The translations under genes were made by a program, and so were the position numbers. Positions 9,584 to 50,756 of a DNA stretch of 64,000 nucleotides are shown here, in pieces (positions within the stretch are counted from its first letter, which is position 1; every line of letters starts with the position of its first letter). This DNA comes from Lytechinus pictus. Its lineage: Eukaryota. Below the pieces are notes generated by a model. It was not told the origin of the DNA. It ran no database searches and saw only the letters and a program-made list of their open reading frames with translations. The stretch covers positions 11,286,001 through 11,350,000 of the forward strand of contig NC_087245.1 of the NCBI RefSeq assembly GCF_037042905.1, written 5' to 3'.

Positions 9584-9817
9584 ATGGCTACTGAATCCTC
9601 CGACATGCAGATGATGCAGCAGCTGGTTGTTGATACACCTTACCAAGCCTTAGAGCCCAAGGTATCTTACAGACCACGTTACAGATCGACCGTGGCCATG
9701 ATCACCGGTACCATCCAGCTTCTGTGTGGCATCATCGTGTTCGTTCTCGGAATCGTTTGTCACGCAATGAACCTGACCTGGTCGATGGCCATCATTGGTG
9801 TGTGGGCTGGTCTCGGG
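9584..9817 (+). CDS. MS4A-like paralog 1, coding exon 1 (N-terminus, TM1)
   Basis: Acceptor ttgcag ends at 9582, ATG at 9584, donor GTAATT at 9818. Confidence 0.85.
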
Positions 9818-12800: not shown

Positions 12801-15800
12801 GCTTGCTAAATTTTATGCAAATAAGCTACCGGTGCTTTGCCCCAGACCCCACGCAGTAGGGGCTCTTCATTTATAACCTTCAAATGGCTCTATAACGCCC
12901 CCGTTCACAATCACGTTCAATCACTGCACAGGCGCGAGGGGGGGGGGGGTCTTGGTTCCACACCCAAGAGGAAATAAAAGAAATTATAGGAGACAACGTA
13001 TAATGAAATGAATGGAAACATTGAAATGTGTTATTTGCTTAATATAATGGAAAAATCTATCACATAATTAGAATGTAATTTCAATAGGCAATTTTTTCCA
13101 GCTCGCTTTGCACGCTGGCGACGTTTTACAGATTTTTCCCACATTACTATGTTTTGCCCCTCAAAATATTTGGTTCATTACGCAACTGGGTTGAATAAAT
13201 GTGTCGTGTAAAAGCTATATCCTGTACATGCCCGCGATTTGATTAAAATAACGGCAATCTGTGAGGTTTAAATGGCTTTGATATCAAGAAGTTCCGGGGG
13301 CTCCGCCCGGACCCCAACCGCACAGCACTTCGTATGGAAGGGTTGGGCCATGGCCCCAAAAAGTTCTACAAACAAGAACCAAAAAAAAAGGAAGAAAGAA
13401 AAGCAAAGGAAAAGTGTAGAATATGATTTTATTTACTGAATATAATATCAAAAAATAGCTCAAAGTTAGATTCTTCTTTGTTTGCAGTATGTGTATTTTG
13501 TTTCCTTTATTGCAAAGCGCGTAGAGAAACTTTCACTTTATTATGCGCTATATAAGAGAAGTATTATTATTAGTATTATTATTATCATGAAAAAGTGATT
13601 TTTTTCTCGCTCGCTTCGCTCGCTCGAGACTTATATAAAGCAGCTTTTTAGCTCATGTGCTATACTGCGCCCCTCGTTTTTTTTTACTCTTCACGCTACT
13701 GCCACAAAGAAGAGTGAAATATATTATTCTCTGGATATCATGTCAATGATCTATCACAAAATTGGATTTTTGTATTAAAAAGTCAAAATTTTTGCTCGCT
13801 CGCTCCGCTCGCTCGCAACTTTTTTTTCAAGATAAATTCTGCCCGATACGCAATATCTGGCCTTCTCAAAATAGTCGCCTCATTACACCTGTTCATACCA
13901 TGATATGACCGGGAAATTTTGGGCTCTTGCCCTCCCTGGCCACCGACCCCTGTTACGCCGCTGATGAAGTCATCCCTGTGGATAGAGGCGAGTTTGAAGT
14001 TTTGACATTTAATGTAAATGTTAACCTTTTCTTTTACTTAGCATCTGTTCAAAGATATACCGGATTTGGATCCATATACACTACCACACACAAAAAGTAA
14101 ATAACTACGCTGGGGACAAAATCATACAAATAATCCTATGACATCTTCTTGGCTTTGACATGTACCTATTTATTTCAATACGGATCAGTAAAGTCCTAAA
14201 GTTTAGAAAGTACACAGCTGCGAATATATGTTGAGCAATTGTGTGATATAACTCTACAGTATCAACAATATCATCAATCTCTCTTCCTTTTTTGCTATTC
14301 TGGTAGTTCTTCTCTTTGAGTGGAGTGCTTGGGATCACTTCAGCACGAAGGCAAACAAGTGTGGTAAGTATATGAGCTCCGACACGGCGCAGCAAAAGGA
14401 AGTAGAGTCTAAAGTGCTCTTCTTCTAGGCCAAATTTTATGCAGAAAATTATATCTTTGTGAGAGATATGCCAGGCAAGGTTTGATTGTATTAAATTGAT
14501 ACCAGGGTATATGACAAATACAGTCATGTGTAATTTTACAGGGGAATTGGTGGTTGTCAATTGCTACTATTTGTTGATTAATTCAGTTACTAATTTCCTA
14601 CAAAGAAAAAAAAACGTAAAAAGGGGACACGGCGTATACATTCTGTATTGGTTTACTTGTTGATTCAACACTGTATCACGATAAATTCAATGATTCTGTT
14701 TTAGAGTAAGTTTGTTCCAGAGAGGCATGATTTGATGCAAGAAATATCGAGGGAAAATTTTAAAAATATATCAGTATAGACGTTTAGTTTATACCACGCT
14801 TAGAATTTGAAATTAAATATCCATAGTTTGATAGTGCTAAGAATTTGTGAATCTTGTGGACAGAAAAGTCAAAAGATAATAATCCACAAGGTATAAAGTT
14901 TCAAGACCGAATACTCTTTACAATTTACCGATTCGAGATGGGAAACCTGCAACGGCCAATCACAAAGACAGTCTAGTCTGCTTTGCAAACCCTTCACTCG
15001 GATTAAGGGACTGAAGGGACAGCCTATCTCATGCCTTACGTACCGAAGGCCCTCTCGCTCAACAGCAAGTTTTATATATGTTAGTCTTTGCGTGGAGACA
15101 TACTTGTTGATCAAAGTTTCAATCAGGGTCTGTGCCTGCAGACTAGAGACGGTCCTGCATTCAGCGTGATATTTTGGATCAGTAAACATGGCAAAGAACC
15201 CCGATTATTTGACCTACGAGCCGAGGTCTAAGATTCAAATCCACCTAAGCATTTTGCAAAAACATGTACCAGTAAGACGAAAACTGAAGATCGCTGTAAT
15301 AGACATAGCTAAGCAATACAGGTAATAGTCGTATTGGAGCGCCTTGTTCTTGGTGTATCAGAAACCGTGCGCTTTGTCTAATATCATCATCATCATTATT
15401 ATTATTATTATCATTATTATTATTATTATTATCATCATCATCATCATCATTATCATTATTATTATTATCTTTATTATTATTATTTTTATTATTATTATTA
15501 TTATGAAGCTTCCTGTTGGGTGAAAATTACTATTAAATAGATATCAAGTTTCGTCTGGCATCGCATTCTTGTAATAATATCTGAGTCAACTTGGTAAATA
15601 CATTGGGGAATATGACATGAATGACATCTCGTGTATACCTCCCAAGATAATGAAGACGCCACAATTTGAAATGCAATTGCAGCCGTGGGATTACGTTCGA
15701 TTGTGATCATCAGCTTTCTGGGTCGTCCCTCAGAAATATTCGTGTATGCTTGTGAAAGTCTGAATACATATATTTATAAATAAGGAAGGATGGAGGTGGC

Positions 15801-18800: not shown

Positions 18801-21615
18801 CGTAGCTCATTTTAAACATGAAATGAGCAGCTCAATACACTCCTTAGCTCCTTGAATCATGTGGTAAATACATATTTTTGAATATTGTAAAGCAATTGAT
18901 CTGTAAATATGAGCATTGTAGAAAAAAGTCAAGGAACATTACATTGAAAACTGTTTGAACGGGGTAAAGGATGATTTCTGGGCAGGGCATTGATGAGGTT
19001 TCAACGAAAGTGAACGATTTGTAAAGAGCTTCCATTCTATAGTTCCAACTAATTCGAATTAACCCACATGGAATCCACCAGGGACGTCATTTGCAAATAC
19101 CTAATGGCAAATAGTTTTGATGACTAAAGCTTATGGACTGATGAGAATACACAATTTACTTTTTAATGATGGAAATTCACTTTCACTATCATTTCACTTT
19201 CTTCATTTTTTGGTTTTGCATTTTTTTAGTAATAATGATTATGCTGTATGTATAATGCGGATTTTAAGCGCATGATATTAAGCATGTACTATAGTGTTAT
19301 AGGCCTACTAAATACAAATACGCAGAGGAAGATCACTTTCTTCAGTCTGAAGCTCTTCTATCTGAGTTATTTTAATTGATAAAGATTATTAATTTCTAAT
19401 CTTAAAAAAATAGAATGAGTTTTCTTTTTTGATAAATGTCAACATGACGTCATGGTAGAATCAATGAAGCTTTATTGTCCATGTGCATATATTTTAATCT
19501 AGTGAGTGCATTCAAGCTTTATAACTAAGTGAATAATGCCTCATTCTAATTCCACTGACATCATCGCTATATCATTTTGTAGATCGTTGGCTACATGACG
19601 ATGTCGATATTGTCAGCTGTAGTCGCCTTGGTAGCTGGGTGCACATACGTTTATGTCGTCTGTGCTGTCAAAGAAACTTGTCCCTTGCTTGAGGAACTTC
19701 ATCTGGACATCGAAGTGCCAACGGACGTCATCAATTGTGTAAGTGATTATGAAAGGGGGTTCCAACCTGAAGTTGCAGTCTATGTAATAATAAAGAAGAA
19801 ACGTATCAATAAAGGTTAACGAAGATCCTGTAAAATATAACTATATACGTTAGAGGCCTAATGAAAGTTTAATCTGTCACTTTGTCACTTATGAGCTGCT
19901 ATTTTGTAAGTCTGTATATACTATAAGATCCATAAATTACATTTGTTTAAGATGAAATATTGAGCTTTTCGAAGAAAAATGGGTTGGCAAAATATGTATA
20001 AAGTTCATCCGATGCACATTAATTCAAAATATGTTATGATGAAATATCGCTTACAGTTCACAAACTAGACCTAGGAATCGGTACTGCTAAAGGACCATTA
20101 TACATGTTCTAATTTCATCCCTAAAATTGCGATTTATACATAAATGTTTAATTGAGAGCTTTTGTTCAATATCTGTTGGCAAAAGAACAGATTGCTATTT
20201 CGTTCAATGAGTATAAAAAGTAATAACACTGATAATGATGATGATTTTGAATCTAAAAAAATATTTTCTTTCGAACAGTCGAGACAAGCTGCGGACATTG
20301 CCATGAATGGAACGTTGGCTGCCATCTTCTTTGTGGAACTCGTTTTTGCGCTCATAGGGTCATGTATTACGTGTAGTGGGATATTCTGCAACAGAGAACT
20401 ATTAGTAGCCACAACACTTATGACAGTAAGTTTGATTTATTAATGAATGTTTGGCTAGTTGATCGCTGTTCTCAAAGGGGTAACGCGGTACTAAAGCGGT
20501 ACGCCTATTAAATACATTGTTGTCACCCTTCGAAAATACCAGCCATATACTCCTATTTCTGAATTATAAATTATCTAAAATCTTAGAACAAAATCGTTGT
20601 AATTTATTTTCTTCAATATGTCTGTCATGATTACACAAATATTTATAAAAGGTATTGATGATAATATGATTTCCAGGCGAAATCTTTCCGGTTTTTTTTA
20701 ATTTGAATTCATTTGTTGTGCATTCAAGATAGCGCAGATCGCTTTTTTTCTTCCAGTGACTGGTATTCCCGGTTTTATTTTGATTAAGGATTTCATATTA
20801 TCTAAATGTTTATTTTGGAACTGCTGAATTAGCAAGCAAAACAATTACTTGTTTAAACGTCATAGGCCTATGTTCACTAGTGAATACGTCATAATAGACT
20901 AAGGGATTTTTCGTGGCAAACAGAACAGTTGTTGGACATCATGGTGGAGGGAAGCAATGCAAGACACTGATCATGCCCAAACTCTATTAAGGCTGCCTGA
21001 CATAGAGTCGGTGTTCATCCGAATTGTTGTATCAGTCAATTTTGGTCAAAATCCGATTTTGTCGTTAACTTAAAGGTAACCGTGTTTTTTCATCATGATT
21101 TTTTGCATGGTGCGGTTGAAAAAATATTGAATCGGATGCAGATGTTGCCTTGAATACTTATTAGGCCTCATGTAACACTGTTTCTGTTAATGAAAAAATA
21201 AAATAACCATTTTGAATAAGTTTCTCTTCAACGTTTACATCTGGTTTGAAGCGTGTGGTACTTTGGCATGACCTACCCTGCTCCATAAAGGCGCTGGAAT
21301 CTGGGGGAGCCGCAGTGGGAAATCACGGCACCCCCCCCCCCCTCCCCCCCACTTGTATCCCTTTATACCTAATTAAAAGAAATTGCCCCCATAAAACGTG
21401 TTTAGCGCTCCTTTTATTTTAGAGGGACCTATTCTATCTCGTATCTTTCTGTCAAAATATAATATATCGATATATTATATCAATTAATTTTTCTCGAAAT
21501 GGTGTGTAATAAAATGAAACTTTTTTTAAGCGTTTGTCTATCATTCATCCACTAATATATTATTCTCTTATCTCTCCAATCTTTTATTTCTCCTCTGTAG
21601 GACGATTATGAATAA
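9584..21615 (+). CDS. MS4A/CD20-like four-transmembrane protein, paralog 1 (~202 aa; exons 9584-9817, 14307-14363, 19583-19738, 20279-20425, 21601-21615)
   Basis: All introns are GT-AG and phase 0. Spliced protein: ...ITGTIQLLCGIIVFVLGIVCHAMNLTWSMAIIGVWAGLG|FFSLSGVLGITSARRQTSV|IVGYMTMSILSAVVALVAGC...INC|SRQAADIAMNGTLAAIFFVELVFALIGSCITCSGIFCNR...MT|DDYE*. The GxxQLxxG TM1, WAG motif, Glu in TM4 and Cys cluster after TM4 match the CD20-like family. Confidence 0.8.
10628..11229. mobile_element. Kolobok-like MITE (TTAA target)
   Basis: TTAA|AGGACAAGACCACCCC...GAGGTGGACTTGACCT|TTAA with long internal inverted arms. Related copies at 31669-32469 and 40165-40707. Confidence 0.8.
12311..13963. mobile_element. 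Non-autonomous hAT-like DNA transposon
   Basis: TIRs CAGTGGCGTAACAGG / CCTGTTACGCCGCTG, perfect 8-bp TSD ATGAAGTC (12303-12310 and 13964-13971). Confidence 0.85.
14307..14363 (+). CDS. MS4A-like paralog 1, exon 2 (57 nt, TM2)
   Basis: Polypyrimidine tract + tag acceptor, FFSLSGVLGITSARRQTSV, donor GTAAGT. Same length as exon 2 of paralog 2. Confidence 0.85.
15200..15503 (+). repeat. Degenerate SINE-like remnant ending in an (ATC/ATT)n microsatellite
   Basis: GAGCGCCTTG...GTGCGCTTTG followed by about 120 bp of ATT/ATC repeats. Confidence 0.45.
15939..15963. mobile_element. 25-bp palindromic insert with 7-bp TSD (candidate transposon footprint)
   Basis: CTCCCAC|CATGGAGCTACTAAGTAGCTCCATG|CTCCCAC. 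Confidence 0.75.
19583..19738 (+). CDS. MS4A-like paralog 1, exon 3 (TM3 + second extracellular loop)
   Basis: ttttgtag acceptor, IVGYMTMSILSAVV...VINC, donor GTAAGT. Confidence 0.85.
20279..20425 (+). CDS. MS4A-like paralog 1, exon 4 (TM4)
   Basis: gaacag acceptor, SRQAADIAMNGTLAAIFFVELVFALIGSCITCSG..., donor GTAAGT. Confidence 0.85.
21601..21615 (+). CDS. MS4A-like paralog 1, probable terminal exon (DDYE*)
   Basis: Strong polypyrimidine tract + ctgtag ending at 21600, in-frame TAA. Confidence 0.55.
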   Translation, partial: DDYE

Positions 21616-22304: not shown

Positions 22305-23135
22305 CACAGAAAGCAAGACCTCTGAAAGACTGCTGTAAGACCATGAAATTTGCTTGATCTTTTAATGGTATATCAATGAACTTTTAAAGATCTCCGATGT
22401 CTTTCACGATTCCTGATTGATCGTTCAGTAGTCTTCGTGGTCCCCATGATCTCCAAAACTTTTTGAAACGGTTCAAAACAGTCTTTCAGCGGTCTTACAG
22501 GAAAATGGTCTTTTGATGGTCTTTCAGCAGTCTTTCAGCGGTCTTTCGATGAACTTTCAAAGTTCTTATTAGTCTTTGCATGATCTTTCGACAGTCTCTC
22601 AAGATTTTTGCGGAGATCACTGTAAGACTTATGAGAGATCATTGAAATGTCATGAAAGATCATTGAAAGACTAAGCAAAGTCCATGGAAAGAATTCTGAA
22701 AGATCACTTGTTGCATAAAAGATCTCTGAAAGACCTTTGAAAGATTTCTACAGGACTAGTCTTAGACCAGTAAGACAAGATATATCCATCAGTCTTTCAG
22801 AGTTCTTTGAGGGGTCTTTCTGAACCATTCCACAGAGATGACAAATTTCAATGATCTTGAAGACTTTTGTAAGACCTTGCCAATTTTTGGTCTTTCAAAG
22901 GTACTTCAAAGGTCTCCCCTCTGTGGAATGGGGCTTAGAAAGATTGTTTTGAACCGTTTCAACTGAAAAAGTTTTGGACTCACGAGGACCGCGGAGACCA
23001 CTGAAAGATCCTTCAGGAATTATGAAAGACCTCGGAGATCTTTGAAAGTTGATTGAAAGACCTTTGAAAGATCAAGCAAGTTTGATTGTCTGAAGGCAGT
23101 CTTTCAGAGGTCTGGCTCTCTGTGGAATGGGGGTT
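22305..23135. mobile_element. Foldback/PIF-like MITE built of GAAAGAC/GTCTTTC microrepeats
   Basis: 22305-22490 is an imperfect inverted copy of 22940-23125. CTGTGGAATGGGG termini recur. Confidence 0.6.
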
Positions 23136-26327: not shown

Positions 26328-27633
26328 ATGATGAACAAAACAAAATATTCATTGTAATTTTTTAAAGAATAAATGAAAATTGTATAATAAAAAAGCTTTG
26401 AGAATATTTTTGTGTCGTATATAAGAGTGCATTTCCCTTGGGGTTGTGCTTGTGCATAAAACTTTAATCCCGACTACTATGAAGTGGTCTTCTTTTCATA
26501 TTCCCCACTATCTCCCTCCTTTGCCCTAGATACATAATAATTGATATACTCTGTGATATAATGCGGGACGTGTGCCCCCCCCCCTCAGCAACGCCTGGAA
26601 ATGAAGATGTAAATATGACATTTAGTGCCAAAGTCATTTTTTTCAATCGTGAAGACCCATCACCCCCTTTTTATTTGTTTATTAGTGATAATTTCACTCT
26701 TGGTCTAGACAGCAAATTAAAACAAAATCAAACCCCCGGATCAAACTACCCAACAAAGCGAATGCATTCAACTTGCTCGGTGCTCCCTCTAACTTTCACA
26801 TTTCGGACCCTTTTTTGTCTTTCTGTCACCGTATACTCCATTCTCTCCTCGCATCCATAGGCGGCGGAAGTGGAGGGGGGGGGGACGTGTCCCCCCTAAA
26901 TTTGAGGTGGGGGGACTTTCCCCCCCCCCCCCTAAATTTTTAGTTGATAACCTTTTTTTTTTTGCTTGTCAATTTTACTCCCAAAAAAAAATGGCATTTC
27001 TATATACGCCCTCCCATTTTTTTTCCCCCGAGCTGAGCTGCGGGGCTGCGTGAGCCATGCCTACGCTTGGGGAAGCTAGGGGGGGGGGGGGTCGGGAGGA
27101 TCATCAGTGAGTTGAAATTGAGAATGATATCTGCCAGGCACCATTAATCCGGCTATCTCACTTCTGCGTGATATGATGAACAAAACAAGATATTGTCTGA
27201 TGAAAGAACATCCTCTATATTGGAAATGACTCGTGCAGCCGGGGGAGATGTAACAAATTATAATGTTTAGAACACTCCCGTTTCGAGGAATGGTGCGATT
27301 ATATTCAAATGAATTCACACGTGCTCAGCAAGTGACTAGTCCAGATTATATTTTAATGATGTATTGTGCAGTACAGTATACTTGCGAAATGATACTAGCA
27401 TTCAATGTCAAGCCAGGGCAGCATGGCATTGAATACGCTCACGTGCTCGCTTTGTGATCGAGCAAGAAGTCAAAAGCTTTTTCTGTTTATAAACACAAGC
27501 ATGCTGACCCCCAAAAATCGTTTGTCTCACCCGACCGACCCTAAAACATGCCGACTTTCTCTTTTATTCAAATTCCCCCCGAAAAAAAAATTATACGCAC
27601 ACACACCCACACCGAAGGTTCGTTGATATTATT

Positions 27634-27672
<39 letters not shown>

Positions 27673-27723
27673 TGATGATAAGTTTACTTCTACCAATCGC
27701 TGTTGAGTTGTGAATATTAAACA

Positions 27724-28985
27724 TAATGAGATGAGGCAAGGCCAACTCAACAGATGACGCAGGACACCATTATTTGCTTTAGCTTTCGTCTTTTAATTGA
27801 GACTTCGTCAGAAGCGTCTGAAAAATATAAGGAGATACAACATCCAAGTTTGTTTTGCACATCAATGAATTATCACCAAGTTGAATATATTCCATAATGA
27901 CAAATTAATGAATGAACAGATAAATAAATTAATGAATAATAAATAATTAATTAAATTAAAATAATAATGACATAAATGAAAAAGACATACCTGTAATTAC
28001 AGACTATTGTGATAGTTAAGTATGACCGTATCCTATCTCGTTCTTTAGGAAAGTGGCAAAAATTGCAAAAAGAAAACATTGGTTGCTAGGTGGTGAAAGC
28101 GCAAAGCGCATTGGTAATGCGCATAAAATTTATGTCACAATGAGTATGAATATTCATGATATTAGATATCGTAAGCTGGAGGATGATGACGAAAACATTG
28201 TTTCTTACAAGCATAGTATTAGTAATCAAATCTCTATGAAACGATATAAATTTTGAAATCAAATCGAGTAAAGATTATAAATAAAATTGTTGATAATTCG
28301 CGTAATGACCAAAAGTCTCACTTCTCAAGCTTGGGTCATCTAGAAAGCACTTAACAAATACATAACAATAAGTATAAAAAAATCATTTAATTAGTGACAC
28401 TGATGTAACAAATGTGACCATGCACATCAATGAATTATCACCAAGTTGAATATATTCCATAATGACAAATTAATGAATGAACAGATAAATAAATTAATGA
28501 ATAATAAATAATTAATTCAATTAAAATAATAATGATATAAATGAAAAAGACATACCTGTAATTACAGACTATTGTGATAGTTAAGTATGACCGTATCCTA
28601 TCTCGTTCTTTAGGAAAGTGGCAAAAATTGCAAAAAGAAAACATTGGTTGCTAGGTGATGAAAGCGCAAAGCGCATTGGTAATGCGCATATAATTTATGT
28701 CACAATGAGTATGAATATTCATGATATTAGATATCGTAAGCTGGAGGATGATGACGAAAACATTGTTTCTTACAAGCATTAAATTAAATCTCTATGAAAC
28801 GATATAAATTTTGAAATCAAATTGAGTAAAGATTATAAATAAAATTGTTGATAATTCGCGTAATGACCAAAAGTCTCACTTCTCAAGCTTGGGTCATCTA
28901 GAAATCACCTAACAAATACATAACAATAAGTATTAAAAATAATTTAATCATTTAATTAGTGACACTGATGTAACAAATGTGACCC
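27724..28985 (-). repeat. 3' pseudo-LTR region with 565-bp tandem duplication
   Basis: TGCACATCAATGAATTATCACCAAG starts at both 27856 and 28421. The units differ by only a few SNPs/indels. Confidence 0.9.
27776..27815 (-). ncRNA. Minimal type-I hammerhead ribozyme (sense strand of the element)
   Basis: Minus strand reads GCTT-CTGACGA-A-GTCT-CAATTAAA-AGAC-GAAA-GC-TA-AAGC: core CUGANGA and GAAA, helix I GCUU/AAGC, helix II GUCU/AGAC, palindromic AGCU helix III, UA cleavage site. Confidence 0.85.
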
Positions 28986-29010
28986 ACGATTGAGGTTAAT
29001 TAGAAAATAT

Positions 29011-30207
29011 CTATTCTTCTACATTGATGCCGTTTGGTACAAGTGTCTTAAGTTTCAGAATCCAATATGACTCTCGTTTGAGTATGATTGATTCATGCTG
29101 TTTTCTGATAAGTTCTATTCCTACAATTTGAATATCATCTGTGGAATGATTATCAGAACTGAAGTGGGCAGCAATTGGGATTTCCTTGCGTCTACTCGTG
29201 TGATATTTCTTTATGTCTGATCGTGTGTTGCACATTCTTGTGTACAGTGTATTAGTAGTCTTCCCGACATACTGTTTGTTGCAGCGTTTGCAAGTAATGA
29301 GATATAATACCCATGAAGATTTGCAATTGATTTGCTGAGTAATTGGGAATTTCTCTCCTGTTACTGTGCTTACGAAATATTTAGTGTTCAACATGAATGG
29401 ACAGATACAACATTTCTTAGCTTCGCATTTGGATGAGCCCATGTGTTCACTCTGATTGTTTTCAGAGTTGACTGAAACACGGGACGATACTAATAAGTCT
29501 TGAAGAGAGCGGCATCGTCTAAATGCGATAAGGGGTGGTTCTGGAAATATTTCCTTTGTCACTTCAGATTGATGAAGAATGTCCATGTGTTTGCGAGCAA
29601 TTTGGGCAACTTTACGCAGGTTGGGGTGATAGGTGAGCACAAGAGGTGTTCTCTTCATTGTTTTGTCTTTCTTCTTATAATGTAAGAGGTTTTCCCGAGG
29701 GATTTCTTTAGCCTTGTTGATGGCTTTGCTCACTGAATGGGGATTGTAATTACGTCTCTGGAGATGTTCTTGCAGATCTGCGATACTAGATTCAAAGTTG
29801 GCTTCTTCGGAACAAATGCGCCTTATTCGGATTGACTGGCTATAAGGAATGCTATTGAAAACATGGTGTGGGTGAGATGAATCGGGAAGAAGATAAGCAT
29901 GGGTGTCCGTCGGTTTGGAGTAGAGAGAAGTTTGTAGAACGTTCTCTTTCATGTAAAGTAGAACATCAAGGAAGGAAACTTGAGAGTTAGATGTTTCAAA
30001 CGTGAATTTGATTGTTGGATGGAATGAATTGGCAGCTTGGATAAATTGGTCAAGAGACTCCCTGTTTCCAGACCAGAGAAAATTAATATCGTCAATGTAT
30101 CTACACCAGGATGATCTGTAAGGCTGTTGTGAGACTGAGGAGAGAAGTTTCTCTTCTAAGTCTGCCATAAAGATATTGGCATAAGAGGGTGCAACTGGAG
30201 TGCCCAT
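29011..30207 (-). CDS. Penelope-like polyprotein fragment: C-terminal RT (YIDD), thumb, Cys-rich linker, GIY-YIG endonuclease; 5'-truncated
   Basis: MGTPVAPSYANIFM, WCRYIDD, HPTIKFT, FLDV, KPTD..Y....S.HP; CEAKKCCIC linker; VLYLITCKRCNKQYVGKT; RESYWI..L.T..P.G.N terminus. The first 19 aa of the track ORF (30208-30264) come from the inverted pLTR. Confidence 0.92.
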   Translation of the reverse strand: MGTPVAPSYANIFMADLEEKLLSSVSQQPYRSSWCRYIDDINFLWSGNRESLDQFIQAANSFHPTIKFTFETSNSQVSFLDVLLYMKENVLQTSLYSKPTDTHAYLLPDSSHPHHVFNSIPYSQSIRIRRICSEEANFESSIADLQEHLQRRNYNPHSVSKAINKAKEIPRENLLHYKKKDKTMKRTPLVLTYHPNLRKVAQIARKHMDILHQSEVTKEIFPEPPLIAFRRCRSLQDLLVSSRVSVNSENNQSEHMGSSKCEAKKCCICPFMLNTKYFVSTVTGEKFPITQQINCKSSWVLYLITCKRCNKQYVGKTTNTLYTRMCNTRSDIKKYHTSRRKEIPIAAHFSSDNHSTDDIQIVGIELIRKQHESIILKRESYWILKLKTLVPNGINVEE

Positions 30208-30976
30208 ATTCATTAATTTATTTATCTGTTCATTCATTAATTTGTCATTATGGAATATATTCAACTTGGTGATAATTCATTGATGTGCATGGTCACATTT
30301 GTTACATCAGTGTCACTAATTAAATGATTTTTTTATACTTATTGTTATGTATTTGTTAAGTGCTTTCTAGATGACCCAAGCTTGAGAAGTGAGACTTTTG
30401 GTCATTACGCGAATTATCAACAATTTTATTTATAATCTTTACTCGATTTGATTTCAAAATTTATATCGTTTCATAGAGATTTGATTACTATGCTTGTAAG
30501 AAACAATGTTTTCGTCATCATCCTCCAGCTTACGATATCTAATATCATGAATATTCATACTCATTGTGACATAAATTTTATGCGCATTACCAATGCGCTT
30601 TGCGCTTTCACCACCTAGCAACCAATGTTTTCTTTTTGCAATTTTTGCCACTTTCCTAAAGAACGAGATAGGATACGGTCATACTTAACTATCACAATAG
30701 TCTGTAATTACAGGTATGTCTTTTTCATTTATGTCATTATTATTTTAATTTAATTAATTATTTATTATTCATTAATTTATTTATCTGTTCATTCATTAAT
30801 TTGTCATTATGGAATATATTCAACTTGGTGATAATTCATTGATGTGCAAAACAAACTTGGATGTTGTATCTCCTTATATTTTTCAGACGCTTCTGACGAA
30901 GTCTCAATTAAAAGACGAAAGCTAAAGCAAATAATGGTGTCCTGCGTCATCTGTTGAGTTGGCCTTGCCTCATCTC

Positions 30977-30980
<4 letters not shown>
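30207..30980 (+). repeat. Inverted 5' pseudo-LTR copy
   Basis: Near-identical reverse complement of 27724-28503. Confidence 0.9.
30889..30928 (+). ncRNA. Minimal type-I hammerhead ribozyme (inverted copy)
   Basis: GCTTCTGACGAAGTCTCAATTAAAAGACGAAAGCTAAAGC. Confidence 0.85.
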
Positions 30981-31031
<51 letters not shown>

Positions 31032-31138
31032 TGTGTGTGAGGGTGTGGGTGTGTGTGCGTGTGTGTGGGGGTGTATTATAAACATTCGAACCTTCGGAAT
31101 TACGTATGTCAAGCGATAAAATTGGCAAATGGTCAGAC

Positions 31139-33065: not shown

Positions 33066-33572
33066 CAGGTCAGGGCCAGCTATTTCGATAGAGGAGGGGC
33101 AAAAACGACCAAAAGGTGACTTCTCCCATTCAGGTGCTCCCTTTTTTTTCATGTTTCATTGCCTAAAAAAATTGCCCCTAGGAGCTGAGGTCGCCTTGTC
33201 TGCAGCGAGGGGGGGGGGGCAGTTACCCCCCCCCCAAAAAAAAAAATAAAAAAAAAAAGTTAAAACTTACTCTGTCAAAACCGAAATTTTTCGCAGAAAC
33301 CTTTAATTTCACTTCAGAAAATGCAAAAGCTAGCGCTCCCATTACAAGATCAGTCGCTTGAGTCCTCGCTTTCGTTTTTTTTGTTCAAACAAAAAATTGC
33401 GTACAACCATGGAAGTAAATCTCGTATAACCACCCCCCCCCCCGAATGACTTCATAGTGAAGTCAATCTCGTATTTTTTTAATGAATAAATTAGTATATC
33501 AATGAATACATATACATCACTTCAATTGATTAATTAATGTCTAAAAAATACTAACGATAGGTATCATAATAT

Positions 33573-34381
33573 AAAGAGTTTAGTTGCAAAAGGGGTTAGG
33601 TCCACTTTGGACCATTCCGAGAAAAACCATGTTTTTTTTCTCACTTATTGCAATATTCTTATGAGAAACTAAATTGTCATGATGTACTACCCTATCATGT
33701 GAACATAAAATATATAGAGTATAAAAGAAATTTACCTGTCTTCAATTTTTTTTCTATATATTTAAAAAAAATTATCACTGTGGACCTAACCCCTTTTGCA
33801 AGTATAAACTTAAATGAATCCAATCTCTTTTGATTAAAAAAGTGATTTTTCTTTGCCACTTTCATTTGAATTTCAAATTGTCTCTGGTATCATCAGAGTG
33901 ACTAAAAATTTAGAGGTTTAGAGACAGAAAACAATAAAATTTATGAAAAATTGACCTAACCCCTTTTGACAAATGAGTTCTTCAGAAGAGTTTAGTTGCA
34001 AAAGGGGTTAGGTCCACTCCAAGAAAATTCTTTTTTTTTAATTCTCCCATATTGCAATATTCTTATGCGAAACTGAATTTTCATGATACCCTACCATGAG
34101 AACATAAAATTGGGTTTAAGAGAAATCTACCTGTCTTCATATTTTTTAAGATATGGCAAAAAATTATGTGTGGACCCAACCCCTTTTGCAACTAAACTTA
34201 AATGGACCTAACCCCTTTTGAAAAAAAGTGATTATTCTTTGCCATTTTAGTTCACTCTTTAATAGGAATTTCAACTTTTCTTTAGTATCATCTAGAGCTA
34301 CTAAAAATCTATACATTAAGACATATTAAAAATCAAATTTGATGAAAAATTGACCTTACCCCTTTTGCAAGTGAGCTCTTC
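33573..34381 (+). mobile_element. Dimeric GAAGAG/CTCTTC-terminated MITE, copy 1
   Basis: Repeated TTGCAAAAGGGGTTAGGTCCA motifs, ATAT flanks, internal junction TTCTTC-A-GAAGAG near 33980. Inverted homolog at 43003-43831. Confidence 0.8.
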
Positions 34382-34490
34382 ATATACATTTAAAAAACAG
34401 ATTACACATAGTAGATATGGATGCCCCCCCCCCCCCCCCCCCCTCCATGCTGGATCTGATCAGGCCCTGGCATATCGCAAATCATCACAC

Positions 34491-42256: not shown

Positions 42257-42577
42257 ATGCCATCCAACTCAAATGACCGAGATCTTGAAGCCATGGCTGA
42301 TACTGCACGTACCAGCCACCCAACAATGCTTGTTCATGCTCATTCCAGCCAATATAGAGGAGGTTCTGTTGGTATTGGGGCCCAGCTCACCCCAGCAGGT
42401 AGCTATGTACCCCTTACCCCCTCTGCCAATGCCTACCACAACTACAACTCCAGCGTTGGTAAGATGACTGGGCTTCTGCAAATTCTTTGTGGCTCAGTAT
42501 CATCTGTGATGGGGCTACTGGCCCTGGTGTTGCATTCACACAAATACTTCATGGATCTACCCTTGTGGGCTGGACTG
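42257..42577 (+). CDS. MS4A-like paralog 2, coding exon 1
   Basis: Acceptor tttgcag ends at 42228, ATG at 42257, donor GTGAGT at 42578. Confidence 0.85.
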
Positions 42578-45500
42578 GTGAGTCCATTTATTTTGGTGAA
42601 TTTTTGAGCACATGCACAGTTGATCTGTGATCTCTCAAACATAAGCACTGATGTCCTTATACAATAAAGCTGGAAAACCATGTTGAAGATGAAAGGGGGG
42701 TACCTTCATATTGTTATTGTCTTTACTTTTTTCTCCCCCTTCTCAGTTTTTGGTCATTGTATGCTCATCCATATATGCAGAGATTATGGGATGATTCATA
42801 CCGTATTCCTTGGAACCTGTAAATAACTTAAATACTGTGAATCCAGTTTGTATGTGTTGCTATGTTTGTAAATCTCTGACAAGACCTAAGGTTACCAAAA
42901 TCAGCCACTGTTTTCAAACTATATGCATAAAATCTTCTCCTACGGCGGCCGTACGGCGAGTCAAAACGGCCGTTTTAACATGTTTATGTATCAGCTACAT
43001 ATGAAGAGCTCACTTGCAAAAGGGGTTAGGTCCATTTTTCATCAAATTTGATTTTTTTTTTTTTGGTCTCGATGTATAGATTTTTAGTAGCTCTATAAGA
43101 TGATACCAAAGAAAAGTTGAAATTCCTAATTAAAAGTTATCAAAAATGGCAAAGAAAAATCACTTTTTTTTCAAAAGGGGTTAGGTCCATTTCAGTTTAG
43201 TTGCAAATGGGATTAGGTCCACACCGAATTTTTTTGGAAAAGAATATTTTAAAAAATATGAAGGTAGATTTCTTTTTATACCCAATTTTATGTTGTCATG
43301 GTAGGGAATCTTGAAAATTTAGTTTCGCATAAGAATATGCAATATAGCAGAATAAAAAAAAATGATTTTCTTGGAGTGGACCTAAGCCCTTTTGCAAACA
43401 AACTCTTCTGAAGAGCTCATTTGTCAAAAGGGGTTAGGTCCATTGTTCATAAATTTTATTGTTTTCTGTCTCAAAACCTCTAAATTTTCAGTCGCTTTGA
43501 TGAAAACAAAGAAAATTTGAAATTTACATGAAAACGTGAAAAAAAGTGGAAAAGAAAAATCACTTTTTTAATCAAAATAGATTGGATTCATTTCAGTTTA
43601 CTTGCAAAAGGGCTTAGGTCCACAATGATAATTTTTAAAAGAATTTATAGAAAAAAATTGAAGACAGGTAGATTTCTTTTATAACCAATTTTATGTTCAC
43701 ATGAGAGGGTAGTACATCATGACAATTGAGTTTCTCTTAAGAATATTGCAGTAATAAAGTGAGAATAAAAAACTTGGTTTTTCTCAGAATGGTCCAAAGT
43801 GGACCTAAGCCCTTTTGCAACTAAACTCTTCATATACATGAAGGTGGTGTTAATATAAATGAATAAAATTGCCGTTTCGACTTGTTGTAAGGCCGCTGTA
43901 GGGGAAATGTGACTGCAGCATCAATAGGCCTACCCTTCAAAGAAAAGTTATTCTTTAAACTTAGCTTTGCTGAGGTTCACCAGACAAAGCAACAGATTTA
44001 CAAACAAACTTAATTAGGCCTGTTTATTCTGAATATGTGCTTACTTTTTAAACAGAGGATCTTGACTACCAGAAAGCTTGTAGAGGTTTTCCAGACATAG
44101 CAACAAGTATTGTAACTAGGCACTTCTTGATATTAAGCTTTAGCTTGACTATCTTTTTTAAAAGATTAAAAGTCCTGAGTGTATTTGACCTTTATAAACT
44201 ATCCCTTGGATCATTTATGTATTCTTGTCACAAAAAGATAATTCCTGAATCACTAAGCAGATATTTTTGTCTCAATACTACTACCCATTCTCACCAAACT
44301 TGTAGACAATTTGATTTTCACATGCCCTCTGTCCGTACTACTTTTACTAAAAAAACTATAATGTATTCAGGTCCCAAATTATGGAACTCTCTTCCCCCTA
44401 CACTTAAAAATAGTGTATCCCTTAATAGTTTTCAACGTCAGTACAAAGAAATTCTGTTAACAACGTTCGCATCCAATAACAACTAAGTAATTGTAACATG
44501 ACTATAATTTCTGTGTTGGCCCTTCTACACTTATTCTCACTAATTTCACTTGTCGATCTTCTGTGACCCTCCACATACGCTAGTCCTTTACCTTTTTTCT
44601 GTCATTTTCCTAAAAAGGCAAACACTTCATTTTAACTTTATTAATGTTTGTTTTTCCTTTGTATGCTTTTGTCTTTGCATGTTCTTTTTTGTATCCCTTC
44701 TTTTTCTTTCTTTACTGGGCTGGAACTTCTAAGATCCAACAGATCTTTAATGCCAGTCCACACACGAAGCCTGTTTTGTACACTAATACTGTATTATCAT
44801 TTTTGTTACTTTATTTTGTTCTTGTCATTATGTACAACAACATCCTTCAACTTTGTATTGTAACTATAGGATGTCATATTATACATTTAAAATGCAGAAA
44901 GAGGTAGCTGAGATTCTTAACAAAGTGCTGTAAGAAGTGGTACCTAGTAATCTGCTTGAAAAAAGAATATGTAGGTCAGGTCACTGCAAGGTAATCTGAT
45001 ATCAGTAAACTACTTCTTGAGTTGCACCCAAGTTTCAAGTAACATATTTTGGGGGTATTATTTCAATTTTTGTGAATTTATATAATAAAAGTTTCAATTG
45101 GAAACTTTTTCATGCTCGGTCAACTTGGATTCACTATTCAGATTTGTTGTGTTGGTCCTACCTGTAAGCTATTATCATTTTTTCTTCTCTATCGGGTATT
45201 TCCTTGTAATTTCTTTGGATATTTGAAAAAAAAATGTTTCTGATTTTTTTTCTTTTCTCCCAAATAGCTGTATCTCTTTGGAGGTGTATTTGGTGTGTCA
45301 ACTACAAAACAACAGACATTCATGGTAAATGCAATTTGATTTGTTCTTGTAAAGTCATCAGACCATTGGTAGTTTCTAGGCATTGGTGCTTTCAATCTCA
45401 GAAAAAATGGGAGCCATGTACCTCCCTTGAAAGACTGTGCAGCATAATGTATAAATCAAGTTTTGCACCCTTTTGAAAAAAGCCAAATGCTCACCAAACC

Positions 45501-48500
45501 ATTGAATATTAGGCTTAAATTTATTTCCAAATTGTAAAATAGGTCTGTTATAGCTGTGCTTGATGTGTACTCCTATATCGTGCATACACACATAGGTTTA
45601 GAACTTCTCAAGTGGAATGTATATAGGCCTACATAGCAAAGAAGTGTACTTTTTAATTTTAACTTAATTATTGGTGCCACAACATTTGCTCCTGCGACAT
45701 TTGCTCCGGTCTTAATATTTCAGAGGGCAAAGGGTTAGAGTTAGGATTGTGATTAGAGTTTTTGGTTCAGAATAATGTAAAGATCGCTATTAGGGTTTAT
45801 CAAGTTTTGGAGATTAGATTGTATGTGTGGCTTAACGTGCAGATTTTCCATCGGAGCAATTGTTGCCAGAGCAAATGTCATGGAACTTAATTATTATCTC
45901 ATTATGCATTAAAATTTATCATTTATTCCATGTTTTATATTATAGGTTGGTCTGTATCTAGTCTTTTCCATTGTCTCAAGTTTGTCATCTTCAGTGGTTG
46001 TTGTTACACAGGGTCATGCTACATTTATGGAAGCAAACACATGTGAATGTTCTATTTTACAGGTATGTACTTCCGCAATTGTCAAATTTCTTATGATGTT
46101 TTTTAATTTCATATTTTGTTTGATTTGTTTACACTTTTTGATTTATTATTCATTTATTTGTTTTTTTCATTCTTCCATTTATACATCCATCTATCCATTC
46201 ACTTTTTGTGAGGGGGGGGGGGGGAGGCAGAGGTAGACTTCCAGATGTGCCCCTGCTATTGAAACTCATTTTTTAAATAAGTATCAGGAAAACAAATATG
46301 CCAGTTTCTTTGAAAATAAATCTTGAAATGCAGGGTTATATTTGTTACCATTGAATGAAGATACTAATTCTATATGTGCACAGAATGTATTTGTTATTAA
46401 TTTCTTTTAGAGTTTTACATCAAATGTTGTTGGGCTTAAATCACAAATTTGATCTCTTTGTCCTGAATTTGTTAATAATTAATGTAGTGTCTGTAAAGTC
46501 CAGTGAGTATAACATTGCAGTATTTTGTGTTTAGTGTGCATTTTAAAACAAGTGTGAATCTCTTCTGCATCCCATAGTAATGCCCAAGTAATGCCTAGTA
46601 TGCAAGAGGTTAAAAGGGCAAGAGGAAAGGCCAATAATAAGAGTAAATGGTCTTATGTATGTCAAAATTATTTGTTCCCCTTCAGAACTTCCTTTTACTT
46701 AAATATAAAAATAAATATTCGGGAATATCCAGGGACATTTTATTTTCCCTGCACATAGTTGCATAGTCATCCTGTTTTGGTTTATTTTTAAGGATGTGAA
46801 TTTTGGCAGAGTTTCATGACTTGATATCAAATTCCCTCCAGAGATTCAGTGCTCATATAAGTAGGTCAGGGCCTTGGTCTTATAAAGAGTTGCAATAGGT
46901 TGAAATCGAACTCAAATTGTGATTGATCTACAGTGTAGATTTGTCTATTTGAGGGATAGGAATTGTAAATCAGTTGAAATTTGAGTTTTATTTATCTATT
47001 GCAGGTCTTTGTAAGGTGAGATTCAGTGTTGGTAGGCAAAATCTTGAATATGAACTTTAAATTTGATAGGCTCTCTTTAAAAAGGGTTCCAACTCTTATG
47101 GATAAGAAATAAAAATATATATTGTATACTCGAGAGTTGGTGACACAGTGATATTGGCTTTTACAAATTAATGCTTTTTATTTGCTTTCTTATTTATTAC
47201 TTGTTACTTTTTCTCTTTGGCCTTTGTCCTATTTTTAAATATTTTGTCTTTTTTTTTTTTTGGGGGGGGGGGTCTCTTTCTCCTTCCCTGATCACTTTTC
47301 TTCCCTCATTCATTTGTCTCACTCCCCCCTCTCTCTCACCCCTGTCAATTCATGCTTTCTTCCTTTCCATCATATCACCTTCCCTTCTCCTGTATCTCTC
47401 CTCCTTCCATTATCTTCAATCCACCCCTTTACCCCTTTTTCCATCCCTTTCCCGTTTCACTCTCCCTCCCTCTTTTCTATCCTCATATTAAACCAATCTC
47501 TCTACCTCTATTATCTTTCAGAGCACCCATATGTTGTACGATGCTACTGCTGCCCTAGTGTCATGCCTGGAGCTCCTCGTGACCTGTGTAGCCATCTATC
47601 ATTGCCTCTTAGGTCTTGGTTGTTGTAGCTGCTGCCAGGGTCCCATTCCCAGGGTAAGTCCATACGTGATGAGAGGTCTGGTATCTCCACACTTGATATC
47701 CAAGGAGGCTCAATTCACAATGGCAGAAATGTTGCTCTTAAATCTATTCAGTTGAAATATAGAAAAGGATCTTTTCAGAAAAATAGAAGCCAGCATGGAC
47801 AGTGTACATACAAGTGCGAGTAATACCTTTGCTTATTTGTGCTAGATCCATAATTTATCACCTGTTTTAAACCTGATGTTACTATATTTGTAGACTGTTT
47901 TGATGCCTGATCAAGGCATTATGCTTTGGGGTCATCCAGCCTTCCCTGATCAAATTTGTTTTAGGAGGTATCATGGTCAAAGGTCACAATTCAAATATCT
48001 TGTGCTTTTTGTTATAACTAAGGAATTGTTTAGTGGATCAACTTCAAACTTATTTCAATTTATACCATTGGATGGATGATGATATAGGGGTCACAATGTC
48101 AAAGGTCACAGAGGTCATAATATCTTGTTCTTGCGAGAAAAAAAGGAGCGTTCAAGGGACCAACTTCAAACTCTGCTTATTTATGCAGACATGAATTAGA
48201 GCAATTGAAAAAAAGTTGCAGATGAGATAGAGGTCTATAAGGTAATGGATGTCATATGTTGTTCTCATGATAATTGTTTGCTTAGTCATCTTCAAATATG
48301 GGGTTTAATATAATCTAATTAAATTTGGGGTCACAAGGTCGAATGTTACAGTGGTCATTATATGTATTTGAAAATTTTAGAATTGGATGGCTTTTTTATC
48401 ATTGATTTTTATTTTGTCTGACTTTGTGTATTTTTTTCAAAGCCAATTCATCTTTTATTTTCTTCTTTAAAAATGGCAATTAAAAATAACCATTTGACTG

Positions 48501-50756
48501 ACAAATTTCAAAGTTAAGCGGGTAGATGCACAATGTATATGCACAGATTTCCCTATGGCACTGACAATAATCCTCAATTTTTTTAGGGTTTTAAGTTCAA
48601 AGAAAAATTGTCTTGTAGGTTATTGTAATCCATGTTTATGAAAATAACTTATTCTTATGTTTCATTTGAAGAATCACAGGTAAAATCTTTTGTAATTTCT
48701 TAAAATGTTATTTTATCTTAATTTCAATGTAGCTTTTTTTATAATGCATCTTCTGTACACATCAGAGAATGATTTTGCTTTACAAATTTGAATAGCATTT
48801 TTGGTCATAAGAGAAAAGCTCTGAACTAAGTAATATGCAGTCCTGTAAAAATATGCTATACAAAAGACTTTATGTGTAGCAGTCTTTAAAAAATGTGGAG
48901 CAAATTGCGATGCGATACCAGGAAAATCATTCTCTGCACATTTACTGATTCAGACATTGGGCTCATATATTTAATAAATCTTGAATGGAATTGAATTGCA
49001 ATTAATGAATTGAATTTATGATTAAATAAAAATAACTTGGCTTATGATGGACATACACTGACACACACAATCATGTGCAACAATGATTGATTAGGACTTT
49101 ACTACTTTTCAACAGTATATTTCAGATCAGGCAATGGCATATACATTGAGAATCCATTCTAAAGTTACTCTTTGTTATCTATATTCTGAAGATCTCCCAT
49201 TCCAACTCTTGTATTATTCTATAATACAAAATGTTCCAGCATTTACATGCATTTTCTCTGTTGACTGAAAGAAGATAAATTTCCTTCAGTGATGAATCCC
49301 TACAGGGCAATTATATTTTTATTCTATTTTGTATGTTCGTATTTTAGTTTCTACTTTTTATCACCATATGTTTTTACAGACCGGTGGTAGAATATTGCTA
49401 TTACCTCAAAGAGTGATCATATAAGTAACTTGAACAGAAAAACAATTTGAATAATAGACATACTGGTATGGTGGTAGAATTATAGAAATTGGAATCAACT
49501 CCTGTTTTGAGCTCAGAAATTAATAGAAAATAGAAATTTTGCTGGTCCCTCATTTTTACATTATTTTGTTTAAACAAGGTAGGAGGAGCCTGTCCCTGAA
49601 ACGTAATCAACCGATTTTATATATGAGACTTGATTACTTGAACTTCATTTTCACTATCTGAATCATTCACACACAAAAAATGGTTAGACTGGAAGCAGTC
49701 TAATACTCTTTTTACACAGGATTTTCTTAGCCCCGGACTATCGCTAACCCCGTACTATTTTTTTTCCTTTTCACACATGCCAAATTGTTATTGCTAACCC
49801 CGAATAAGGAATGCTTGCTTTTCACACACAAAACTCGCTAACCCCGGACTAGTGGTAGCTCATGAATGTTCACGAGCGCACTGAGGGGTCATTCGGGTCA
49901 TATCCAAATTCGCGCGCGCTTTAAATACATTTGTCGATCATTCGTAGTACAAGTACTTCACTCGGAATTGTTTACCGGCTGTACGATAGACCTAATTACG
50001 TTATTTGCTTGATTCTCATCGCCGTGTTCGCTGTTCATGAATATTCATTATGCTTACCTCTGATTGGACAACAGGGCCGGCACTGTTGCGGGGGCATGAA
50101 TGGGAGCGCTTAGCCCACTTTCGTTTTACACTAGCGATCTTAACCCCGTACTATCGCTCTTAGCACCGCAATTGCTGGGATAACCCTGCTTTTTTGCAGG
50201 GCCAAATAATCCCGTACTAAAGGTGGGGTTAGCCCACTTTGCAAAAATGCTGTGTAAAAAGAAAGTGGGCTAAGCTTAACCCCGTACTATAGGTGGGGCT
50301 AAATGGCAATTTAGCCCCACCTATAGTACGGGGTTAAGGACATTTTAGCGTGTGTAAAAAGGGTATTAGTGTGCCCTTCAGAATCCCTCAATAGGCATAA
50401 GTTATTTTGGTTTGATCTATGTTTCATGTACTTCCATATTATCGGAAGACTATACATTTAGAACCCCAAACTAACAAAATTCAGTGAAATTCAGGGGTCA
50501 ATTGATCTACATATGAAATGGGTTGATTATTTTATGGAAATCCTAGTTGAGTTACATTTTGATCACTTAGCATTTTTTTATTTATTTGTATTTTTATCCG
50601 ATTTTCTTCTTTTGGTTCTCTTTTCTGTTTCAGGAACCAAGAAATGGCATTTCACATCCTCCAACCATGATGGATTTCAGCAACATTCCTCTCCCTCCCG
50701 CCCCCATCTACCCTGTCCTACCCCCAGAGGGCTCAGAGAAAGTGCCCCTTGAGTGA
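42257..50756 (+). CDS. MS4A/CD20-like four-transmembrane protein, paralog 2 (~249 aa; exons 42257-42577, 45268-45324, 45946-46062, 47522-47653, 50634-50756)
   Basis: All introns are GT-AG and phase 0. Spliced protein: ...KMTGLLQILCGSVSSVMGLLALV...DLPLWAGL|LYLFGGVFGVSTTKQQTFM|VGLYLVFSIVSSLSS...TCECSILQ|STHMLYDATAALVSCLELLVTCVAIYHCLLGLGCCSCCQGPIPR|EPRNG...PLPPAPIYPVLPPEGSEKVPLE*. Confidence 0.85.
43003..43831 (-). mobile_element. Dimeric GAAGAG/CTCTTC MITE, copy 2, nested in an older MITE (~42930-43918)
   Basis: ATAT|GAAGAG...CTCTTC|ATAT. Host element ends CCTACGGCGGCCGTACGG and GGCCGCTGTAGGGGAAATGTGACTGC. Confidence 0.8.
44150..44486 (+). pseudogene. 3' fragment of an L2/CR1-group LINE ORF2
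   Basis: FKRLKVLSVFDLYK...FMY...H.H.T......H.P..RT......I.YSGPKLWNSLP..LK.S.SL.SF, the typical C-terminal motif of this LINE group. Confidence 0.75.
45268..45324 (+). CDS. MS4A-like paralog 2, exon 2 (57 nt, TM2)
   Basis: Pyrimidine tract + aatag acceptor, LYLFGGVFGVSTTKQQTFM, donor GTAAAT. Confidence 0.85.
45673..45887. mobile_element. Merlin-like MITE with internal GGGTTAG-like repeats
   Basis: GGTGCCACAACATTTGCTCC...GAGCAAATGTCATGGAACT, 8-bp TSD TAATTATT. Confidence 0.6.
45946..46062 (+). CDS. MS4A-like paralog 2, exon 3 (TM3, loop)
   Basis: tatag acceptor, VGLYLVFSIV...CECSILQ, donor GTATGT. Confidence 0.85.
47522..47653 (+). CDS. MS4A-like paralog 2, exon 4 (TM4, Cys cluster)
   Basis: Long pyrimidine tract + ttcag acceptor, donor GTAAGT. 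Confidence 0.85.
49704..50365. mobile_element. PIF/Harbinger-like MITE with TAACCCCGTACTA subrepeats
   Basis: TAA|TACTCTTTTTACACA...TGTGTAAAAAGGGTA|TTA. Confidence 0.65.
50634..50756 (+). CDS. MS4A-like paralog 2, terminal exon (Pro-rich tail)
   Basis: tttcag acceptor, in-frame TGA at 50754-50756, AATAAA at about 51114 and 51904. Confidence 0.8.
   Translation, partial: EPRNGISHPPTMMDFSNIPLPPAPIYPVLPPEGSEKVPLE

Follow-up and report, generated by a model that had tools for sequence, protein, structure and literature searches.

Outward-facing minimal hammerhead motifs at a truncated Penelope-like insertion in Lytechinus pictus: one element part present twice, behind a short intron

Why would one stretch of sea urchin DNA carry the same small ribozyme motif twice, on opposite strands and facing outward, and does either copy act where it lies? 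We asked this of a 64-kb stretch of the Lytechinus pictus genome, here called the window, in which a preliminary description had reported an identical 40-nt motif at the two ends of a Penelope-like element. The letters bear this out. The first copy (27776-27815, - strand) lies in the 3' pseudo-LTR of the element and the second (30889-30928, + strand) in an inverted arm, and the second is the reverse complement of 27776-27815 letter for letter. Our own parsing of the 40 nt reproduced the earlier one, a full core with helix III nearly absent: a helix I of 4 bp is followed by the CUGACGA box and one extra A, then by a helix II of 4 bp with an 8-nt loop, closed by a G-C pair beside the core, and by the GAAA box, with the self-complementary AGCU at the position of helix III and CUA as the triplet. 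The cut sites predicted earlier, after 30924 on the + strand and after 27780 on the - strand, agree with the motif so parsed.

Detection by hammerhead models, as the preliminary description had proposed, gave a divided result. A type-I scanner run over both strands returned only two matches in 64 kb, which are these two copies, whereas the Rfam hammerhead families gave no match in the window at the gathering score, nor at E-values up to 10. When the window was shuffled 100 times with a third-order Markov model, the scanner in its loose form found 0.18 matches per shuffle and in its strict form none (0/100). All testable sequence features of a minimal hammerhead are present, namely CUGANGA, GAAA, A15.1-U16.1 and an NUH triplet (CUA), together with the extra base between positions 9 and 10.1, the G10.1-C11.1 pair and a helix III that is a short palindrome, AGCU, as in the minimal hammerheads of metazoan Penelope-like elements. 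The motif also lies within the pseudo-LTR and in sense orientation to the open reading frame (ORF). As far as sequence can tell, both motifs are real members of this known class, and the earlier assignment to a minimal type-I hammerhead in a Penelope-like pseudo-LTR stands.

Dual minimal hammerheads on opposite strands have been described before, with the extra base 9/10.1, the G10.1-C11.1 pair and a palindromic helix III (Cervera & De la Peña 2014, PMC4209133), and the legend of Fig. S4A in that report presents a 5'-truncated element with a second minimal hammerhead at its 5' end, on the opposite strand. The window motif shares with the metazoan motifs of that study the CUGANGA box with its extra base, GAAA, the palindromic 15.2-16.2 positions, the NUH triplet, a short helix I and a U-rich 5' flank. 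It differs in that its helix II is at the short end of the range (4 bp), and its sequence is not among the rows of Fig. S3 with which it was compared.

The element that carries the motifs reads, on the - strand, from the inverted arm through an ORF fragment, a partial repeat and a complete repeat with the hammerhead to a 53-nt tail. The ORF (29011-30207, - strand) is 5'-truncated and open to its stop; in a single frame it holds a reverse transcriptase from motif 4 on, a CX4CxxC linker and, at the C-terminus, a GIY-YIG endonuclease (Pfam GIY-YIG, E 8.7e-07; RVT_1, E 3.1e-06, the latter below its cut-off), the combination by which EN+ Penelope-like elements are recognized. Protein relatives number 27,005 at E<=0.001, the best of them 40-50% identical. 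Full-length relatives have ~860-980 aa and the fragment aligns from their residue ~470-590 onward; therefore, ~500 N-terminal residues are missing. To find the ORF start, a profile built on the N-terminal parts of 29 long relatives was run against all six frames of 27670-27817; its best E was 0.11, and no start was assigned there. The linker falls within the CX2-5CxxC pattern of the Neptune clade (a CX1-6CxxC motif occurs in 93 of 150 relatives), and TA tracts at both ends (27639-27669 on the left, 30982-31031 on the right) correspond to the microsatellite target of that clade. By linker and target the element appears to be Neptune-like; Nematis has the same linker. With the Neptune and Nematis EN+ elements (Craig et al. 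2021, PMC8557442) it has in common the C-terminal GIY-YIG, the linker (CX4CxxC here), the CCHH residues, the TA-microsatellite target, the tandem plus inverted repeats and a one-sided tail, the clade being assigned by such features.

Two pseudo-LTR copies follow the ORF. The complete 3' copy (27723-28419, - strand) consists of an upstream part, the intron, the hammerhead and a short end at 27723. The partial copy before it (28421-28984, - strand; 564 nt, 8 mismatches to the complete one) ends inside the intron, 40 nt short of helix I, and so lacks the hammerhead. This confirms that each strand has a single motif, and with it the earlier point that cleavage would need two molecules. The tail (27670-27722, - strand) is present at the left end only and has an AC-rich end, and an 11-bp stem (27753-27743 with 27710-27700) bridges the short end and the tail. 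Partial-tandem pseudo-LTRs, an inverted 5' copy and a tail are all found, which fits the definition of an EN+ Penelope-like element. Published insertions include partial tandems and an inverted copy with 5' truncation, along with a tail on one side and a TA bias (Craig et al. 2021, PMC8557442), and inverted pseudo-LTRs, tails and microsatellite targets are standard in Penelope-like elements (PMC8557442, PMC2377424).

The 3' end of the family appears to take two forms. In sequencing run X1, 161 contigs align on 27672-28420, and the summed word depth, which is not a copy number, drops from ~6,000 to ~1,300 across 27722/27723; contigs of X1, and of X9, which has another organism label, stop at 27723 in TA repeats. 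This depth step and the contig ends at 27723 indicate the two-ended tail pattern of Frangieh et al. (2024, PMC11167929), where it was tied to two start sites of reverse transcription. The Poseidon element of Anolis carolinensis also has its hammerhead shortly before two alternative 3' ends that are parted by the tail, with a stem-loop and AC-rich sequence at the ends and an AT-rich target (PMC11167929). It differs from the window element in clade and in that its ORF starts in stem II.

The second motif is accounted for by the inverted arm (30207-30981, + strand), which adjoins the point of ORF truncation and is the reverse complement of 27723-28503 with 0 mismatches and one 6-nt indel (arm lengths 775 and 781 bp). 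The two motifs are identical because both sit inside near-identical inverted arms. We rejected copy identity as a sign of selection, the whole arm being identical; arm identity is therefore evidence only for a young insertion. Thus, the motif pair is one standard part of a Penelope-like element, doubled by the inverted end of a truncated insertion. The opposite-strand layout at truncated Penelope insertions is already published, and the new detail is an intron that ends 2 nt before the motif.

We consider it very probable that the locus is one recent, dead-on-arrival, Neptune-like Penelope insertion, whose source carried one pseudo-LTR minimal hammerhead behind a short intron. The layout, the multicopy family and the intron-less forms of that family speak for this reading. 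An inverted second copy of the 3' end would have been placed at the 5' junction, by which one motif comes to appear twice, facing outward. The tail of 53 nt sits less easily with it, being longer than the published 30-40 nt (PMC8557442), as do a family copy with a decayed motif and the limited frequency of strict motif matches in related loci, both described below.

Within the family, one substitution falls in the motif among the best 40 of the 80 substitution rows of X1; it lies at 27799, in loop II, and adds a U-A pair, and no change in the core occurs among the same 40. The indels considered (11 further rows aside) include a 2-nt deletion at 27794, in loop II, and an insertion behind 27815, at the motif edge. 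The core is thus likely to be unchanged across family copies, to judge from these rows. Five RNA reads of run X23 come from one family copy with an apparently decayed core G8 and helix II, which means that intact motifs are not universal in the family.

The motif recurs in part of the related loci. We searched the best 80 of 343 confirmed relatives on metagenome contigs and found a minimal hammerhead in 19 of them, against 3 matches in 20 shuffled sets; these belong to 14 sequence groups. Where at least 300 nt follow the ORF, a strict sense-strand match was present in only 12 of 33 loci, 159-535 nt past the ORF match, and of 29 further loci extending to the C-terminus 10 showed a looser core, the latter an uncontrolled count. 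We aligned the window motif with those of 14 of the 19 loci; four near-duplicates (L009, L012, L032 and L037) were dropped, as was L066, whose helix III is longer. All eight helix I and helix II pairs (8/8) vary on both sides over the 15 aligned sequences, an outcome that is partly circular since the motifs were pre-selected for pairing, and the G10.1-C11.1 pair is GC in 12 of the 15. The palindrome and triplet of L008 and L009 are the same as in the window motif, and in L032, as in the window, an inverted copy faces outward from a position upstream of the ORF. A scan of viral contigs gave 8 pattern matches and no relative.

Whether either copy acts at this locus is a separate matter. The preliminary description had suggested that the + copy, with a second molecule, could cleave host read-through RNA running between two MS4A-like genes. 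Those genes rest on weak Pfam matches of individual exons to CD20 on the + strand, with E-values (0.005-0.045) that fall short of the curated cut-off. In favour of the idea, an intact motif shares its strand with both CD20-like genes, each of which has an acceptor-like site before the ATG, and an upstream exon could place the element in a long first intron of the right gene. However, any + transcript over the element contains, 3.1 kb before the motif, a stretch perfectly complementary to it, and folding predicts -322 kcal/mol for the duplex of a 178-nt piece of the arm, compared with -30 for either strand alone. In unspliced RNA the predicted probability of helix I is at most 0.21 in 10 of 12 contexts, and the active dimer of the bare 40-mer is predicted to be ~3-5 kcal/mol less stable than two monomers (at 37 C, -10.1 against -12.8). 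In published experiments minimal hammerheads did not cleave as monomers and cleaved weakly as dimers (PMC4209133), and the Anolis hammerhead cleaved only with the protein of its element (Frangieh et al. 2024, PMC11167929). The insertion is moreover young, with identical arms, which makes use by the host unlikely. Searches for the outer exons of the CD20-like genes, the last of the left gene and the first of the right, were both negative (exons were located up to 20425 and from ~42230); with the outer exons not placed, no host transcript across the element is established. Given the antisense arm, the unfavourable folding, the need for a partner and the absence of a crossing transcript from what we found, cleavage of host read-through RNA is highly improbable.

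The RNA data are sparse. Two RNA runs of the same species label contributed 47 and 22 reads, most of them <90% alike, and the depth over the motif is ~1-5 reads, mostly from diverged copies, which is too few to test cleavage. No position has at least 5 molecules beginning or ending in the 47 + 22 reads, a result compatible both with cleavage and with its absence. Three first-mate-minus reads of X24 end near 27772-27773, 6-7 nt off the predicted cut; they are too few, and are indistinguishable from clipping at diverged letters. A variant in which the two arms supply each other would suit a single motif per strand: outward pseudo-LTR promoters in both arms would yield two short RNAs, begun 3 kb apart, that cut each other, the inverted arm being the missing partner. 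The internal promoter of a Penelope pseudo-LTR can drive flanking sequence (Schostak et al. 2008, PMC2377424), an RNA begun inside an arm would be free of the antisense arm, and exon, intron and motif are intact in both arms. Such a promoter and such outward transcripts are nevertheless hypothetical for both family and locus, the ~1-5 reads over the motif form no pile-up of ends, and a truncated copy would gain nothing; we regard this variant as improbable, if somewhat less so than cleavage of host RNA. Both hammerhead copies at the locus are most likely silent passengers, because there is one copy per strand and a crossing RNA folds back on 775 bp.

That the second copy is a fold-back artefact of assembly is least probable of all. 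The arms do show 0 mismatches over 775 bp, and none of the sequencing runs spans the insertion. Against this, the arms differ by the 6-nt indel and the tail, they abut separate TA tracts and different flanks, and the layout is the published norm. We also considered a non-LTR retrozyme. The animal non-LTR retrozymes likewise have type-I hammerheads tied to pseudo-LTR sequence and need two motifs for activity, but they are non-coding tandem arrays with a motif in every unit (Li et al. 2026, 10.64898/2026.07.22.740005); here the tandem copy is without a motif and an ORF fragment is present, and this candidate was rejected. A more serious alternative, possible though on balance unlikely, is that the motif is dispensable for transposition even in the source element, as a weak, protein-dependent or hitch-hiking ribozyme. 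Core mutants of the Anolis Poseidon hammerhead were without effect on insertion in vitro, and in the RNA-seq data of that report no ends fell at the cut site (Frangieh et al. 2024, PMC11167929); Naiads, too, proliferate without canonical hammerheads (Craig et al. 2021, PMC8557442). On the other side, core and helices are kept, with compensatory change, at ~35-45% protein identity, which points to selection on the fold. For an active source element we suppose that the hammerheads of two tandem pseudo-LTRs, present on one RNA, would pair through AGCU/AGCU and swap the strands of helix I, and by analogy with the published systems such a dimer, probably with help from protein, would trim the RNA.

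One feature is absent from the preliminary description, an intron just before the motif. A GT-AG intron of 173 nt with splice signals (27818-27990, - strand, left arm) ends 2 nt before helix I, and an identical copy lies in the inverted arm (30714-30886, + strand). Once spliced, the exon end before it (30700-30713, + strand) forms a perfect 16-nt palindrome with 30887-30888; the corresponding parts in the left arm are 28004-27991 plus 27817-27816. Two independent sets of diverging sequence ends support it. Three DNA contigs of X1 diverge at the acceptor, after which 12 letters agree with the exon ahead of the donor; therefore, intron-less copies exist as DNA. Five X23 RNA reads diverge at the donor and continue into hammerhead-like sequence, but their copy has 3 letters rather than 2 before helix I and a decayed core, and the source of these spliced-looking reads may be an intron-less genomic copy. 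No formal splice joint for the 173-nt intron is listed in the read mapping, because the second side is short or diverged. From its sequence signals we take this to be a spliceosomal intron kept in the genomic copy, as in EN+ Penelope-like elements.

A close parallel is Penelope of Drosophila virilis, in which a short spliceosomal intron also ends at helix I and genomic copies keep the intron (PMC4209133, PMC2377424). There, as here, spliced and unspliced forms place the motif in different contexts. The window differs in the length of the intron (173 nt, against 75 nt in D. virilis), in a helix I that is unchanged by splicing, in the 16-nt palindrome at the junction and in the Neptune/Nematis-type linker. 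Our literature search for a splice-made palindrome, or for a splice-dependent switch of a Penelope hammerhead, found nothing beyond the D. virilis remark in the sources it covered, most subscription papers being outside it.

The arrangement raises the possibility that splicing gates the ribozyme, as an extension of the insertion reading that would act in the active source element. With the intron in place, acceptor letters would pair with the CUGA box or downstream of it and misfold the motif, and splicing would free the core. At the spliced junction the 16-nt palindrome, lying against helix I, would form a hairpin that sequesters competing letters, and it may seed pairing between RNAs. Unspliced RNA would then stay uncut as a template and spliced RNA would be trimmed, which would help explain why the intron is retained. 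Folding at 25 C is consistent with this: helix I has a probability of at most 0.21 in 10 of 12 unspliced contexts and of at least 0.91 in 10 of 12 spliced ones. Shuffled exon ends match the real value in only 9/200 and 11/200 trials (p about 0.05, borderline), and two spliced RNAs cofold through the 16 bp at -53.6 kcal/mol against 2 x -20.3, a gain of ~13. Intron-less forms were found at these very boundaries, and the intron of D. virilis likewise stops at the 5' end of helix I (Cervera & De la Peña 2014, PMC4209133).

Several results weigh against such a switch. Two contexts in each set go the opposite way (unspliced 0.77 and 0.89; spliced 0.11 and 0.73), nor is it this intron in particular that lowers the unspliced value, since shuffled versions of its end score equally low in 148/200 and 96/200 trials. 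Perfect 16-nt palindromes are not rare, with 9 in the window. In the active dimer the strands of helix I are swapped, and the 16-bp duplex would cross that helix, so that the two together would have a pseudoknot-like topology; the folding measure of helix I is itself a monomer proxy for a helix that is intermolecular in the active dimer. The observed spliced RNA reads come from a decayed core. In related families an acceptor-like site stands at helix I in 3 of 14, against a background of 6.7%, which is unconvincing, and as a general rule in relatives we rejected it. We therefore hold splice gating to be a tentative and rather unlikely extension, less probable than dispensability. Its fullest form, in which the pseudo-LTR intron would be an on-switch for the hammerhead through the spliced palindrome and the inverted arm could supply the partner RNA, seems if anything a little more doubtful.

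The motif pair as found is of little consequence, because minimal hammerheads paired on opposite strands have already been published for truncated Penelope insertions. The junction of intron and hammerhead is the one part that merits a bench test. For this the family is a clean object: its 40-nt motif is intact, the intron is mapped to 2 nt upstream of it, intron-less forms occur naturally, and the folding prediction is sharp. Splice gating, if true, would link two traits of these elements, the retention of introns and ribozymes that are weak and act only as dimers.

The junction that truncates the partial, hammerhead-less pseudo-LTR copy of the Penelope-like element within its intron occurs in both inverted arms, at 28420-28421 and at 30289-30291. 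In contigs from X1, a sequencing run with DNA matching the pseudo-LTR, the repeat start is joined to the ORF stop region instead of to this tandem junction (loose end at 28418). Thus, the tandem junction looks specific to the present insertion or its parent.

Beyond the TA tracts, the flanks at 27595-27669 and 30991-31060 show an inverted likeness of about 80% over 75 nt, and they have in common one 11-nt word together with CA/TG repeats. A small inverted-repeat element may have been there first, and the Penelope-like element may have inserted into its central TA stretch. The window holds further inverted repeats. A MITE-like pair of about 185 nt (22305-22487 and 22938-23124, 82% identity) encloses a 450-nt core, an 850-bp repeat built from two 400-bp units lies at 33569-34385 and, inverted, at 42999-43835 (86% identity), and 52479-55222 comprises inverted arms of about 1 kb containing tandem units of about 390 bp, at 67-72% identity.

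Sets of putative plus-strand exons at 9584-9817, 14307-14363, 19583-19738 and 20279-20425, to the left, and at 42257-42577, 47522-47653 and about 50635-50755, to the right, likely represent two paralogous four-transmembrane CD20/MS4A-like genes; the CD20 matches are weak and limited to the first coding exon of each.

Two frames 3' of the hammerhead (27670-27817, minus strand) remain open into the tail, one of them starting with an ATG at 27724-27722, and neither scored in comparison with the N-termini of relatives.

Among related loci in metagenome contigs, the hammerheads of L002 and L013 carry U3-A8 in place of C3-G8, and the looser cores of L003 and L004 carry U3-G8. The U3-A8 form is reported for Schistosoma by Cervera & De la Peña (2014, PMC4209133). 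Additionally, 5 of the 14 related families (L008, L020, L022, L035 and L043) have a TATA-like box 32-45 nt 5' of helix I, which suggests that in these families the hammerhead would lie at the very start of the transcript.
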